From Verrucomicrobiia bacterium (GTDB lineage Bacteria > Verrucomicrobiota > Verrucomicrobiia > Chthoniobacterales > Chthoniobacteraceae), in assembly GCA_040374425.1 (NCBI GenBank), contig JBEIUI010000001.1, forward strand, positions 2,823 through 66,822: DNA of 64,000 nucleotides, given 5' to 3'. Both the position numbers and the translations under genes were made by a program. The notes beneath the pieces were generated by a model. That model worked only from the letters and a program-made list of their open reading frames with translations. It had not been told where the DNA came from and made no database searches. Positions within the stretch are counted from its first letter, which is position 1. Every line of letters starts with the position of its first letter. Positions 50,023 through 54,702 of the stretch are shown piece by piece.

Positions 50023-51180
50023 TTACAAGAGCCTTCCTGAGAAGAGCAGTAGACCGAAACAAACGGCGTGGAAAGTGAGGAGGACGTTCACCCAGCGCCA
50101 GACCGGGCCTTCGGGCCAGCGTTTCTGGTGTTTATCCCACCTCGCAAACGCGTCGTAACCGGAGAGCAGAGCGGCGTGGTAGATCCCGTAGAGGATGTAA
50201 TGGAGCTGCGTGCCGTGCCAGACGCCCATCAGGCCGAAAGTCAGAAACAGCCCGAGATAGGAGGAGGTGTATTTGCCCTTAAACCATTTGCCCTTGGAGG
50301 CGGCTAAAAGGAACCGCATGTAAACGTGGTCCCGGAACCAGAAGGAGAGCGACATGTGCCAGCGATTCCAAAAATCGCGGATGTTCGCCGCAAGGAACGG
50401 CAGGTTGAAGTTCTCGGGGGTGTGGACCCCGAAGAGATAACTCACGGCAATCGCAAACGCGCTGTAGCCCGCAAAATCAAAGAAGAGGTAGAAGCTGTAG
50501 GCATACATGGAGCTCAACAGCTCCAGCACGCCCCCGCCCGTGCCTACCCGGTCTAACCAGTAAGTTTTGATGAGCGCCGCGAGAATGAATTTGTAGAGGA
50601 ACCCCCGGAAAACCCGCTCCACCGCCCCGTCGAGATCCTGGAGAAACTCCTGGCGGTTCCGGCGCCGATTCCAGTCCTGCGTGAACCGGCGATAACGATC
50701 GATCGGGCCGGAGGAAAACGTCGCAAAGAAAAACAGGTAGGCCGCGAACTGGGCCGGGGAGAGGGATTTGATGACTCCATCGTGGATGCTGAAAATGACA
50801 TCCAACGCCCGAAACGTGACGTAGGAGATGCCGAGAAACCCGAAAGCGGTGCCCGGCCAGAGCTCGGGCAGGAACTTCGCCGCGGCGAGAGGCGCAATGG
50901 AGAAAGCCAAGGCCCAGGGGAAAAGCCGGCGGGATTTCCATTTTAAAAACGCCCAGCTCAGCGCGCCTTGATAGACGAGGAACCCGAGCGCGATGGTCAA
51001 CTCGCGCACCGCGATGCCGGGGCGAACGACCAAGGGATGGTTGAGATGCACCAGGAGCATGGCCCCGCTCGCCAGGAGCGCCCAACGCGCGTTGGCCTTT
51101 CCGAAAAGCCCCAACACAACGGTGGGCACCAGCAGATAAAGCAACAGCCCGAAATAGGTGAAATCAGCGTAGGGGCTCAT
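50023..51180 (-). CDS. dltB: MBOAT-family D-alanyl transfer protein DltB
   Basis: The N-terminus MSPYADFTYFGLLLYLLVP is DltB-like. MBOAT core FWNRWHMSLSFWFRDHVY with the conserved His. Polytopic. Confidence 0.9.
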   Translation of the reverse strand: MSPYADFTYFGLLLYLLVPTVVLGLFGKANARWALLASGAMLLVHLNHPLVVRPGIAVRELTIALGFLVYQGALSWAFLKWKSRRLFPWALAFSIAPLAAAKFLPELWPGTAFGFLGISYVTFRALDVIFSIHDGVIKSLSPAQFAAYLFFFATFSSGPIDRYRRFTQDWNRRRNRQEFLQDLDGAVERVFRGFLYKFILAALIKTYWLDRVGTGGGVLELLSSMYAYSFYLFFDFAGYSAFAIAVSYLFGVHTPENFNLPFLAANIRDFWNRWHMSLSFWFRDHVYMRFLLAASKGKWFKGKYTSSYLGLFLTFGLMGVWHGTQLHYILYGIYHAALLSGYDAFARWDKHQKRWPEGPVWRWVNVLLTFHAVCFGLLLFSGRLL

Positions 51181-51260: not shown

Positions 51261-52727
51261 TCAGAGCAGCTCGGCCAGTTTCCGACGATCGGCCTTGCCG
51301 TTGGCTGTCATCGGGAACGCCTCCAAAAACCTGAACTTCCGGGGCACCATGTAGGCGGGCACGCGCTCGGCCAGTCCGGCCTTGAGCCGGCTCGAAAAGT
51401 CGAACTCCGAGCCCTCCCAAGCCACGGCCGGCACGACAAACGCCATGAGCGATTCGATCCGGTCGCCCTTGCTTACAGGCAACACCACGGCATCGGCTAC
51501 TTCGGCTAAGGCGCGCAGGTTGGCTTCCAGATCCCCCAGCTCAATCCGGTACCCATTGACCTTCACCTGTCCGTCCATGCGCCCCTCAAAAAAGAGGAGG
51601 CCGTCGCGTTCCCGCCCCCAATCACCCGTGCGATAAGTGCGTGCAGGCGCCTCGTCGAAAAACACCTTGGAGGTGAGATCTTCCCGCCCCAGGTAACCCG
51701 GGCTCACGTTGGGTCCCGCGATGAGGATCTCGCCGCGTTCGCCTTCCGGCGCCCTCTGGCCGTCTTCGGAGCAAATAAAAACCCGGGTCCCGCGCATCTC
51801 GCGGCCCACCGGCAGGGGCGAATAACGCTCCAACACATCGCGAGTCACCTGAATGGAAGTCGTGGCCACGGTCGCCTCGGTCGGGCCGTAGGTGTTCCAC
51901 AGGGACGCCTTGGGAAACCGCTCCAGCAACTGGGAGGCGGTCTCAGGAGCGAGCGTTTCTCCGCAGAAAAGAAACCGGCGCAGCGTCGGCACCATCGCCT
52001 CCCTGAACCCGCGCTCGATCAAACACATCTGGGCAAAGGACGGAGTGGAAACCCAAGTGGTCACCCCCGAACGCCCCAGCGCTTCGTAGAGTTTTTTGAG
52101 GTTAGCCACCTCCTCCTTGGTGATGCTAAAGAGCGTGCCGCCAGTGACGAGGCTCAGGTAAAGGTCCATCACCGAGAGATCGAAGGAGAACGGGGCCTGG
52201 TTGAGAAAGGTTTCGCCCGGAGCAAGGAACGATTGTTCGTCGCACATCCAATCCACAAACACCTCGAGATTGGCCAGGGTGATAATGACCCCCTTGGGTT
52301 CGCCGGTGCTACCCGAGGTGAAGAGGATATAGAACGGGTCCTGCCCCTCCACCCGGTTCAACCCGCCCCCCCCCCCCGCCGCAGTCTCCGCGCACAGCGT
52401 GGCGATCCGCTCCGGGTTCAGCACCACAGCCGCTCCGGAGCTCTGCACAATGCGTTCGATGCGATGCGCAGGGATCGATACGTCGATCGGCACATACGGA
52501 CGCCCCGATTTCACGGCTGCCAGGAAAGCGACGAGCATTTCCGGCTCTTTATGCCCGGTCACCGCCACTGGCGCGCGGCTGCCCGGGAACTGGGTCTCAA
52601 GCCAATGCGCCAGGGAATCGGACCGTTCGAGAAGTTCGCCGTAGGTGAGCTGGCGGCCCGCACTCACATGCGCAAGGGACTCCGGCGCGACTCGCCCCCA
52701 ATGATCAATGCGATCGAGCAGATGCAC
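51261..52727 (-). CDS. dltA: D-alanine--D-alanyl carrier protein ligase DltA
   Basis: FTSGSTGEPKGV, QAPFSFDLSVMDLY, TWVSTPSFA, YRTGD, and a C-terminal NGKADR. GTG start, 5 nt after the dltX stop. Confidence 0.9.
   Translation of the reverse strand: MHLLDRIDHWGRVAPESLAHVSAGRQLTYGELLERSDSLAHWLETQFPGSRAPVAVTGHKEPEMLVAFLAAVKSGRPYVPIDVSIPAHRIERIVQSSGAAVVLNPERIATLCAETAAGGGGGLNRVEGQDPFYILFTSGSTGEPKGVIITLANLEVFVDWMCDEQSFLAPGETFLNQAPFSFDLSVMDLYLSLVTGGTLFSITKEEVANLKKLYEALGRSGVTTWVSTPSFAQMCLIERGFREAMVPTLRRFLFCGETLAPETASQLLERFPKASLWNTYGPTEATVATTSIQVTRDVLERYSPLPVGREMRGTRVFICSEDGQRAPEGERGEILIAGPNVSPGYLGREDLTSKVFFDEAPARTYRTGDWGRERDGLLFFEGRMDGQVKVNGYRIELGDLEANLRALAEVADAVVLPVSKGDRIESLMAFVVPAVAWEGSEFDFSSRLKAGLAERVPAYMVPRKFRFLEAFPMTANGKADRRKLAELL
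52366..52377. repeat. C12 (G12 on the coding strand) homopolymer inside dltA
   Basis: Counted directly: 12 consecutive C at 52366-52377. They encode the GGGGG run in ...TAAGGGGGLNRVEG.... Confidence 0.9.
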
Positions 52728-52732
52728 AGCGC

Positions 52733-52876
52733 CTAGAACCCTTGGTAAACAAACGAGGGTGTGGAAAAATCGCCGCGCCCATAGATGGCGAGCAACCCCG
52801 CGATGATCGCGAAGTAATAGAGCGCCAGAAGCGCGATCCGTGCACGAGGCCTCGCCTCAAACCAAGAAACTGTCAT
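52733..52876 (-). CDS. dltX: DltX-like small membrane protein (47 aa)
   Basis: MTVSWFEARPRARIALLALYYFAIIAGLLAIYGRGDFSTPSFVYQGF has a single TM helix and ends in F-V-Y-x-x-F, like the DltX FIYNEF C-terminus. It sits 4 nt after dltC and 5 nt before dltA. Confidence 0.7.
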   Translation of the reverse strand: MTVSWFEARPRARIALLALYYFAIIAGLLAIYGRGDFSTPSFVYQGF

Positions 52877-52880
52877 CCCG

Positions 52881-53138
52881 CTACGCGGCCAAGCGGCCAA
52901 GCACGTCAGCCACCAGTTGACGAGGGGTGGCCCAGTTTTCCCGTTCAAATTCAGCCGGCGAGATTTCCACGCCAATCTCAGCTGAGAGCGCGACAATGAG
53001 CTCCACGGTCTTCATGGAATCGAGCACCTGCAGATCATACAAGGCAAGGTCCGGATTCGAACACACCTCATAGCTTTCAGCGACGTTGGCGAGGACTTCG
53101 AGGATGCGTTCAGCGGTATCGGGGGCTACGAGGTTCAT
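52881..53138 (-). CDS. dltC: D-alanyl carrier protein DltC
   Basis: 85 aa. LDSMKTVELIVALSAEIGVEISPAEFERENWATP parallels the B. subtilis DltC segment LDSFGTVELLLAIE...EFDRDVWNTP. The Ser in DSM is the phosphopantetheine site. Confidence 0.88.
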   Translation of the reverse strand: MNLVAPDTAERILEVLANVAESYEVCSNPDLALYDLQVLDSMKTVELIVALSAEIGVEISPAEFERENWATPRQLVADVLGRLAA

Positions 53139-53223
53139 AGGGATGAGGGGAGGATGGGGGGCTGGGGGTACTGGGTTCCGGAGGAGGGAATTCGGGAGAC
53201 GGGGGAGGGGAATCTTAGGGGAC
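53139..53223. other. Polypurine, G-run-rich tract on the + strand (polypyrimidine leader on the dlt mRNA strand) directly upstream of dltC
   Basis: About ten runs of at least 3 G within roughly 85 nt, read directly from the sequence. The region abutting the dltC ATG has no purine-rich Shine-Dalgarno on the coding strand. Confidence 0.85.
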
Positions 53224-53421
53224 TTGCCTTTAACGTATGATCGAATCCCTTGAAAACTTGGAGCTTTTTTTTACGGCGGGAAAAAACCCGGTGCCGCATC
53301 GGGCCCGCGAACTGGAAACATTGCTTTATCTGGCAAGACAACACATTGGGAACACTCGAAAGTTAAGCGTTCAATGCCTCTGACGTGCCGCAGACGCTCT
53401 CTGCGCTTCAATCCGCCTCGA

Positions 53422-54702
53422 TCAAGGCTTCTCCGGGACCTCACCGGAGGCCGGTGCGGAAAGAAATCGCCCGTGATAAAAGTCATCGAGTGCCTTGTTG
53501 TAATAAAGCCAGCCCTCGCCGCTGAGGTGATCCAGGAAATCCACGGTGAATCCCGGGCTGGCTTCGCTGGCCGGGAAATCCGCCAAGGGGATGTTGTATT
53601 TCGTGGCCAACTTGCGCAAACGTCCCGTGTAAGCGGCGCGGGAAGAAGCCGAAATTCCGTACACCTCCAGGCGAATATCCTCGATGGGAATACTCAGGAG
53701 AAGCGGCTGGGCACCTAATTCAACAAACGTCCGCAGCAGCAGCTCAAAATCGGTCCATTCGCGGGCCCTGACGAGGGACTCCATGAAAACGAGATCCCGG
53801 GAGGACTTCGGGATTTTTTTCTTGGCGATCTCTTTGAGTTTGGACTGAACGGCGGCGGCATTGACGAATTTGGCGGCCTTTTTGAGCAGCTCGCTCCAAT
53901 TGAGCCCGCGCAAGCCACGCCGGGGAGTGGGGTTGAGTTTTTCATCCCACTCGAGGATGTACAGAGCCGACTCTACGTGATCCTGCATCCGGGCCACACC
54001 GGAGTGGAGTTTGCCGAGGGGCCAGACCAGCCCGTAAAGAATGCGATCGAGCCAGCGGTCTCTGGCGAGGTGACTCAGGGTAAATCGGAGAAGGGGCCGC
54101 GAATTGAGCGTTTTCGGAAAAGCCAACATGCGCCGGGCGACGTCGCGCTTGAGTGCGTGACTTAACTCCGAGCTAAAGGCCATTTCATAGGCCTGCATTT
54201 CTGAGAAATTGCCCTCGTAAAACGAGGGATCGAAAACCTCGGTAAAAAACCAGCCCGGTGAGATGGAGAAAGCCAGTTTTTTTCCGCGCACGCCAGCCCC
54301 CACCCCGGCCACCTTCTGGAGCACCGCCAGCGAGGTTGTCCCGGGTTTACCCACGGGAAACACCCGGAACCCGGTGGGATAATCCGCGAAGAACTGGTTG
54401 GCGTTGTTGGGCATGGTTTTGTGCAGCTCGGAGCTGCCGTAAAACACGAGGAGCTCGGGCTCTTCAAACGCGTGTCTCTGGAGGACGACCCCCTGAAGTT
54501 TCTCGGCGTTAAACTCCGGGGCCAGTGCATGAATGTAGCGCTTTTCGAGGCGCTCACACCAAGTCCAGCAAGCCCACACCAGCAACGCCCCCAGCAGCAA
54601 TGCACCCCCTGCGGCGATCAAATTCCTGGCGCCCGCATCGGCAACCGCCGCCTTCCGGGGGGCCACCGGGCTACCTGGCTTTTCTGAGGAAGAATCGCTC
54701 AT
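53422..54702 (-). CDS. dltD: DltD-like (SGNH-like) D-alanyl transfer protein
   Basis: N-terminal TM anchor, LVFYGSSEL (the DltD GSSE nucleophile motif), and C-terminal FTVDFLDHLSGEGWLYYNKALDDF (the D-x-x-H motif). Confidence 0.8.
   Translation of the reverse strand: MSDSSSEKPGSPVAPRKAAVADAGARNLIAAGGALLLGALLVWACWTWCERLEKRYIHALAPEFNAEKLQGVVLQRHAFEEPELLVFYGSSELHKTMPNNANQFFADYPTGFRVFPVGKPGTTSLAVLQKVAGVGAGVRGKKLAFSISPGWFFTEVFDPSFYEGNFSEMQAYEMAFSSELSHALKRDVARRMLAFPKTLNSRPLLRFTLSHLARDRWLDRILYGLVWPLGKLHSGVARMQDHVESALYILEWDEKLNPTPRRGLRGLNWSELLKKAAKFVNAAAVQSKLKEIAKKKIPKSSRDLVFMESLVRAREWTDFELLLRTFVELGAQPLLLSIPIEDIRLEVYGISASSRAAYTGRLRKLATKYNIPLADFPASEASPGFTVDFLDHLSGEGWLYYNKALDDFYHGRFLSAPASGEVPEKP

Follow-up and report, generated by a model that had tools for sequence, protein, structure and literature searches.

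The locus examined here raises the question of whether the short interval between dltC and dltA in the dlt cluster of a verrucomicrobial genome is a spacer or holds a gene of its own, and whether that gene is dltX, which the Dlt pathway of Firmicutes requires. Throughout, "the window" refers to the whole stretch of 64,000 nucleotides that was analyzed. We consider it very probable that a 47-codon open reading frame (ORF) in this interval is the dltX of a complete dltD-C-X-A-B cluster, with its carrier role assigned by homology and its probable translational coupling by the spacing of the genes. The features that bear on this assignment, in order of their position in the window, are as follows.

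50023..51180, minus strand: dltB, a short-form MBOAT of 385 amino acids (TIGR04091, 433 bits, positions 2 to 380 of 380)
51261..52727, minus strand: dltA, D-alanine--carrier protein ligase of 488 amino acids with a GTG start (NF003417, 567 bits)
52733..52876, minus strand: dltX, 47 codons from the ATG plus a TAG stop at 52733-52735 (translation, DltX homology, orthologs, and codon-position diversity)
52736..52753, minus strand: C-terminal "acyl shuttle" hexapeptide of DltX, F42-V-Y44-Q-G-F47, with the Tyr44 codon at 52745-52747
52781..52837, minus strand: predicted single transmembrane helix of DltX, I14-Y32 (hydropathy, AlphaFold2, and the layout of the Bacillus thuringiensis 407 [Bt407] DltX)
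52877..52996, minus strand: spurious 5' extension of the 87-amino-acid ORF, out of frame with dltC
52881..53138, minus strand: dltC, D-alanyl carrier protein of 85 amino acids (NF003464, 73.7 bits; TIGR01688, 67.9 bits; both above the cutoff)
53422..54702, minus strand: dltD, a membrane-anchored SGNH-like transferase of 426 amino acids with GSSEL (PF04914, 178 bits; TIGR04092, 165 bits)

A 47-codon frame packed between dltC and dltA

Translation of the minus strand from the ATG at 52876 runs through 47 codons to the TAG at 52735-52733. The internal start, the 47-residue product, and the coordinates given in the original prediction all hold. The frame is closely packed between its neighbors. 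The dltC stop codon, TAG at 52883-52881, is followed by CGGG, which leaves a 4-nt gap before the dltX ATG, and the dltX TAG is followed by GCGCT, which leaves a 5-nt gap before the GTG start of dltA at 52727. Gaps of 4 and 5 nt had been claimed at these junctions, and they can be read directly in the sequence. No clear Shine-Dalgarno motif precedes the dltX ATG. From the conservation of the frame and its start among orthologs and from the packing with dltC and dltA, we infer that initiation takes place at the ATG at 52876, and it is most likely that dltX is translated by coupling to dltC and dltA.

Upstream of this ATG, the same frame stays open as far as a TTG at 52996, giving an 87-amino-acid ORF at 52733-52996. 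The longer ORF had been described as masking the shorter one and as overlapping the 3' end of dltC. It does exist; it starts with the TTG and shares 116 nt with the 3' end of dltC in a different frame. The choice between the two forms is taken up below with the comparative data.

Relationship to the DltX family

The Pfam DltX model, PF12459, had been named as the appropriate check on the identity of the ORF. All 14 of the aligned sequences, comprising the window protein and 13 orthologs, match this model, with a best E value of 1.7e-8, but the window protein's own score of 22.2 bits lies 2.8 below the gathering cutoff of 25. The 13 orthologs come from a six-frame search of 40 related genomes, 13 of which carry dltX at an E value of 5e-6 or better. 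In the window protein, residues 15 to 47 fall on profile positions 11 to 43 of 43, with an E value of 1e-4. Judged from these alignments, the proteins clearly make up an orthologous group within the DltX family, the window sequence itself being a subthreshold member. With a Pfam score this close below the cutoff, the ORF would go unnamed in domain-based pipelines even if it were called, and none of the NCBIfam models matches the 47-residue microprotein. Position 22, where Leu is invariant in Firmicute DltX (Kamar et al., PMC5541007), is occupied by Phe here and in a minority of the orthologs, with Leu in most orthologs. Phe22 may be the cause of the low Pfam score.

Alignment to a Firmicute DltX, also proposed beforehand, gave a direct result. 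The query was the Bt407 DltX sequence, taken from the figure legend of Kamar et al. (PMC5541007). By BLASTP, 15 of 40 aligned residues are identical (38%) in a gapless alignment that reaches both C termini, with an E value of 1e-9. When a profile of the 14 sequences was compared with the Bt407 DltX using hhalign, the probability was 98.1% and the E value 7.7e-14. A profile search of solved structures returned no DltX chain and only chance matches to transmembrane helices.

Conservation of the frame and alternative readings of the interval

A scan of species-representative genomes yielded 139 further matches, 80 of which were compared. The records of those 80 genomes are named Chthoniobacter, Candidatus Udaeobacter, Chthoniobacteraceae, or Chthoniobacterales, which places the window in a Chthoniobacter-like member of the Verrucomicrobiota. 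The search pattern for the 80 loci was YGRG[DN]F[SA]TP, so that the constancy of those nine residues there follows in part from the search itself; neither the YY pair nor the terminal hexapeptide belonged to the pattern. In all 93 orthologous loci (13 plus 80), the frame is open and lies inside a dlt cluster, and in all 93 it ends in F[VI]YQxF directly before the stop codon (80/80 of the species-representative loci). Conservation of the 47-residue frame and of its terminal Y-x-x-F, on which the original prediction depended, is thus found in the 13 relatives and in the 80 species-representative genomes alike. The order D-C-X-A-B is found in 57 of the 80 loci, and the remainder either show truncated versions of this order, for which contig ends are responsible in at least some cases, or have D-C-X-B or C-D-X-A-B. 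The X gene stands between dlt genes in every one of the 80 loci, also where the order is C-D-X-A or D-C-X-B.

The nucleotide changes among the orthologs are those of a coding sequence. In the final 34 codons, the three codon positions have nucleotide diversities of 0.186 (first), 0.121 (second), and 0.530 (third). At the invariant Tyr, Phe, Gln, Thr, and Pro codons, positions 1 and 2 are unchanged and position 3 is highly variable. Judged from this substitution pattern, the 47-codon frame is under purifying selection and is a real gene.

A different reading of the interval would be that it is a noncoding spacer between dltC and dltA, or that it is the plus strand that codes, through an 85-amino-acid ORF at 52742-52999, and that the DltX-like end arose by chance. 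Gene callers did leave this 153-nt stretch empty in three near-identical contigs, GC-rich DNA such as this often has open frames on several strands, and PF12459 at lax thresholds weakly matches many unrelated control genomes in six-frame translation. Against this, codon position 3 is three to four times as diverse as positions 1 and 2, the changes at the invariant codons are silent, a stop codon follows the final Phe in every ortholog, and the homology with characterized DltX is significant. In addition, all 81 sequences compared (the window plus the 80 orthologs) keep the sense frame open, but only 59 of the 81 do so for the antisense frame that contains the 85-residue ORF of the window, which was rejected as a coding frame on that count. 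Taken together, these observations make a noncoding or antisense origin of the interval hardly credible.

If the interval is coding on the minus strand, the true product might still be the 87-residue protein initiated at the TTG at 52996, with the 47 residues making up only its C-terminal part. The frame is open from 52996, TTG is possible as a start codon, and an open frame of 92 codons is also present in the closest relative. However, the extension is an out-of-frame reading of conserved dltC sequence, and upstream of the dltX ATG it is closed by stop codons in many orthologs. Across the 80 loci, stop-to-stop frames go down to 48 codons and do not exceed 60 in half of the cases (40/80). A start codon 42 to 54 codons before the end of the frame is present at every locus, giving ortholog lengths of 42 to 54 amino acids. 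The dltC stop and this start share 4 nt at 61 of 78 loci, and in most of those 78 loci the dltX stop lies 0 to 5 nt from the dltA start. The similarity among orthologs begins only at about residues 3 to 5 of the 47-residue form, and the 87-residue form was not produced by any gene caller. An 87-residue product is accordingly very improbable, and the 87-amino-acid ORF is an artifact of an open frame in GC-rich DNA. We proceed with the 47-codon frame as dltX.

Layout of the protein and comparison with known DltX proteins

The 47-residue protein consists of a basic N terminus with three Arg within residues 9 to 13, one hydrophobic helix, and a 15-residue tail. Like other members of the family, it has fewer than about 50 amino acids, one predicted transmembrane helix, a basic N terminus, and a short tail. 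The single helix of the original prediction is recovered by both methods used. Hydropathy places the hydrophobic segment at residues 14 to 32, with a Kyte-Doolittle maximum of 2.38 in a 15-residue window, and an AlphaFold2 model built on 33 orthologs has a helix at residues 10 to 32 with a pLDDT of 94 to 95 and a less confident tail. By the positive-inside rule, the N terminus is predicted to face the cytoplasm and the tail to lie outside the cytoplasmic membrane. The Y-x-x-F motif had been placed at the extreme C terminus, and indeed the protein ends FVYQGF and then stops. In both ortholog alignments (A1 and A2), F42, Y44, Q45, and F47 are invariant.

The likeness to the Firmicute protein takes in size, layout, and sequence motifs. 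The protein has 47 residues here and 48 in Bt407, and both proteins are divided into a basic N terminus, one helix, and a tail, with 11, 22, and 15 residues in Bt407 and about 13, 19, and 15 here. Both contain YY-x-AI within the helix, YG where the helix ends, and a C-terminal F-[IV]-Y-x-x-F. The tail reads GRGDFSTPSFVYQGF here and GFHDTNTSTFIYNEF in Bt407. As in Firmicutes, the gene is encoded in the dlt cluster next to dltA, but the gene order is D-C-X-A-B here and X-A-B-C-D there. The residue at position 22 is a further difference, Phe here as against Leu in the Firmicute proteins, and so is the Gln that follows the Tyr, which is invariant in the 93 orthologs and predominant in the subfamily, unlike in Bt407. 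The DltX proteins of other Verrucomicrobiota metagenome-assembled genomes are 65 to 72% identical over their full length and have the same C-terminal motif and cluster context, which makes them orthologs.

A HMMER scan of 1.84 billion representatives returned 220 clusters at an E value of 0.001 or better. Among the best 150 of these 220 representatives, 134 are short and end in F-x-Y-x-x-F, most of the remaining 16 have Tyr for the first Phe or Tyr for the last Phe, and all belong to the [FY][VI]YQxF subfamily. From the alignments and the representative matches, the tail of this non-Firmicute subfamily can be written as Y-G-[RK]-G-[DN]-F-[ST]-[TA]-P-x-[FY]-[VI]-Y-Q-x-F. The Gln after the motif Tyr is nearly invariant in the subfamily, the corresponding residue being Asn in Bacillus, and a conserved W-x-x-x-[HR]-P precedes the helix.

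Partner genes of the cluster

Each of the four neighbors, DltD, DltC, DltA, and DltB, passes at least one curated model. In DltC, the LDSM phosphopantetheine site is conserved in an alignment with solved DltC structures. DltA scores 553 bits against the TIGR01734 equivalog, just under its cutoff of 559.85, and 505 bits against the Bacillus cereus DltA structure 3FCC. Asp197 and Cys269 of DltA serve in amino group binding and in selection of the D-enantiomer (PMC4176424); their equivalents here, D183 and C255, are conserved. DltB aligns end to end with the Streptococcus thermophilus DltB structure 6BUG (243 bits), with the histidine motifs WHG and WNRWH conserved, and DltD conserves GSSEL and the C-terminal HL..GW in comparison with structure 6PFX. 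The C terminus of the window DltB lacks an FxYxxF motif. A short DltB without the shuttle motif is the case that needs a separate DltX microprotein (PMC12148441), and the shuttle would therefore be needed here as a separate protein.

With dltX recognized, all five dlt components are present in the cluster, which supports the view that it is functional. The original prediction had gone further and read the presence of dltX as a sign that the whole relay works. That claim stands as far as the motifs carry it: the catalytic motifs are intact in DltA, DltB, DltC, and DltD, which suggests a working relay at the level of sequence. A true DltB, defined as one near or above the TIGR04091 cutoff, occurs together with DltX in 13 of the 40 relatives, and one occurs without the other in three genomes. 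These exceptions are a 54%-complete genome with DltB alone at a separate locus, a genome with a visibly degraded dlt locus, and a fragmented genome in which the D-C-X-A contig stops before DltB.

Several features of the related loci are recorded here as observations in their own right. In one relative from the same genus (L117, G010:C58:5900-8530), the dlt locus is degraded or misassembled and is without DltX. DltD is split into two pieces there and DltC is incomplete; of DltA, only residues 123 to 169 are left, and these abut DltB from residue 34. In two genomes of the same genus (L116, G008:C6, and L118, G003:C7), DltB stands alone with no dlt gene nearby. Genome G003 carries D-C-X-A on another contig than DltB, from which it follows that the cluster can be split. 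Many Udaeobacter-type loci (L099:7596-9074 and about 40 others) encode a DltB of about 492 amino acids, compared with 385 in the window. Its first 386 residues align with the window DltB; the remaining 105 or so form a soluble extension at the C terminus that has no counterpart in the window DltB. A second MBOAT is encoded in the genome outside the window (G000:C77:12782-13564) and scores 157 bits against the DltB model. It is of the long AlgI/PatA-like kind, with an open frame of 603 amino acids.

Two nucleotide-level features of the cluster itself may also be mentioned. The coding strand of dltA contains a run of 12 G residues at 52366-52377, and two near-identical contigs have a run of the same length. 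In a third near-identical contig, the run is 9 nt long and in frame, giving one Gly fewer and a DltA of 487 amino acids, and in a fourth, low-coverage contig, it is 13 nt long, with a frameshift and a broken dltA gene call. These differences are due either to true variation in length or to assembly errors at the homopolymer. The spacer between dltD and dltC (53139-53421) is 283 nt long and C/T-rich on the mRNA strand in a cluster that is otherwise tightly packed. Scanning the dltD-dltC-dltX region against Rfam returned nothing at E values up to 1, and a promoter and terminator scan that included 53139-53421 gave no signal above chance.

Proposed relay

On the basis of homology with the Firmicute pathway, DltA would load D-alanine onto the phosphopantetheine arm of DltC, and the MBOAT DltB would then move the D-alanine across the membrane to Tyr44 of DltX. 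By way of the flexible DltX tail, the D-alanyl ester would reach the DltD catalytic serine, and DltD would place the D-alanine on an envelope polymer. The original prediction had assigned the motif tyrosine as the carrier of D-alanine between DltB and DltD, and this agrees with the literature as summarized in PMC12148441, where the FXYXXF motif and its Tyr are described and where the work of Schultz, Snow, and Walker (Nat Microbiol 2023) is cited for transfer of D-alanine from DltB to DltD by the C-terminal Tyr of DltX. By analogy, we infer that Tyr44 would receive D-alanine from DltB and give it up to DltD. As the residues of the DltA D-alanine pocket are conserved, the acyl group is probably the usual D-alanine.

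Two other systems offer comparisons. The long-form MBOAT PatA, which works with PatB in peptidoglycan O-acetylation, likewise has an FXYXXF motif whose Tyr accepts the acyl group for transfer to a partner of the SGNH type; there, the motif is carried on two extra MBOAT helices and the donor is acetyl-CoA (PMC12148441). In the present cluster, by contrast, the motif is on a separate microprotein, the MBOAT is a short DltB, and the donor would be a carrier protein. The dlt genes of Dickeya and Pectobacterium (PMC5541007) resemble those of the window in forming a diderm dlt set that includes a small protein with one membrane pass and the same topology, and in having an acceptor presumed to be non-teichoic. 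According to Kamar et al. (PMC5541007), the Gram-negative DltX proteins that they examined lack sequence similarity to Firmicute DltX. Unlike the Dickeya and Pectobacterium DltX as described in that study, the window protein is clearly similar to the Firmicute protein.

Acceptor in a diderm host

The genome encodes LpxC, and the bacterium therefore has lipid A and an outer membrane. To our knowledge, teichoic acids have not been found in Verrucomicrobia, and the host, a diderm member of the Verrucomicrobiota, differs in this respect from the Firmicutes. A TagF-type glycerophosphotransferase (PF04464) was not found in the genome, which is 85% complete. For these three reasons the last step of the relay would not be the textbook one, and a classical teichoic acid is an unlikely acceptor. 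No extra neighbor gene is conserved across the 80 loci, in which only dlt genes and antisense shadow ORFs recur, and a literature search for dlt in Verrucomicrobia or Chthoniobacter returned nothing specific.

There is roughly an even chance that the protein is a true DltX in a relay that decorates another molecule of the diderm envelope, such as lipopolysaccharide (LPS), a protein, or a glycan of the outer membrane or periplasm. The lineage-specific YGRGDFSTP-x-FVYQ-x-F tail would then be adapted to that setting. The presence of LpxC and the failure to find a TagF-type gene fit this idea, as does the absence of any conserved extra neighbor that would point to a teichoic acid pathway. For the dlt genes of soft-rot enterobacteria, which are Gram-negative, a role in LPS modification has been proposed (PMC5541007), and the tail signature is kept across the 220 representative clusters, as seen in the best 150 of the 220, unlike the FIYNEF of Bacillus. 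On the other hand, the genome is only 85% complete, the absence of PF04464 is compatible with an LtaS-type or other polyol-phosphate polymer, the conserved DltA pocket makes the usual acyl group probable, and these data identify no acceptor. A non-teichoic acceptor would modify only the last step of the best explanation and would not replace the assignment of the ORF as the dltX of a complete cluster.

We tentatively extend that assignment to the lineage, at a little less than an even chance: the Chthoniobacterales may have a complete Dlt relay with a DltX subfamily of its own, marked by an invariant YGRGDFSTP-x-F[VI]YQ-x-F, that acts on a non-teichoic acceptor in a bacterium that makes lipid A. 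If the acceptor is indeed non-teichoic, a widespread soil and freshwater lineage would provide a natural model for Dlt in diderm cells. The question of the acceptor concerns the dlt cluster as a whole and not the micro-ORF.

Annotation status

The DltC, DltA, and DltB proteins of this contig are present in a collection of 15 billion proteins with NCBI, Logan, and ENA as sources. An exact look-up of the 47-, 55-, 71-, 80-, and 87-residue forms of the ORF found none of them in that collection. The ORF occurs with identical nucleotides in four other assemblies, and in the three of those with an intact dltC-dltA stretch, the 153 bases between dltC and dltA are without a gene call. The expectation that automatic annotation would miss a gene of this size is thus borne out for this genome and the near-identical contigs.

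Elsewhere, the family is well represented. A profile search returned 2,370 related proteins, with PF12459 assigned to most among the matches listed, and NCBI records give relatives the name DltX. Compared with the annotated Verrucomicrobiota DltX, the window protein differs only in its annotation status. The family is known and orthologs are annotated in the same bacterial family, and what is reported here is an uncalled member, an annotation correction and not a discovery. The value of the finding lies mainly in annotation, in that neither this genome nor the near-identical contigs have the 47-codon dltX among their gene calls. Some JGI records list orthologs as "hypothetical protein." In two JGI records (P0016 and P0066), orthologs are named "cytochrome bd-type quinol oxidase subunit 2," an apparent misannotation of a protein that is short and hydrophobic.
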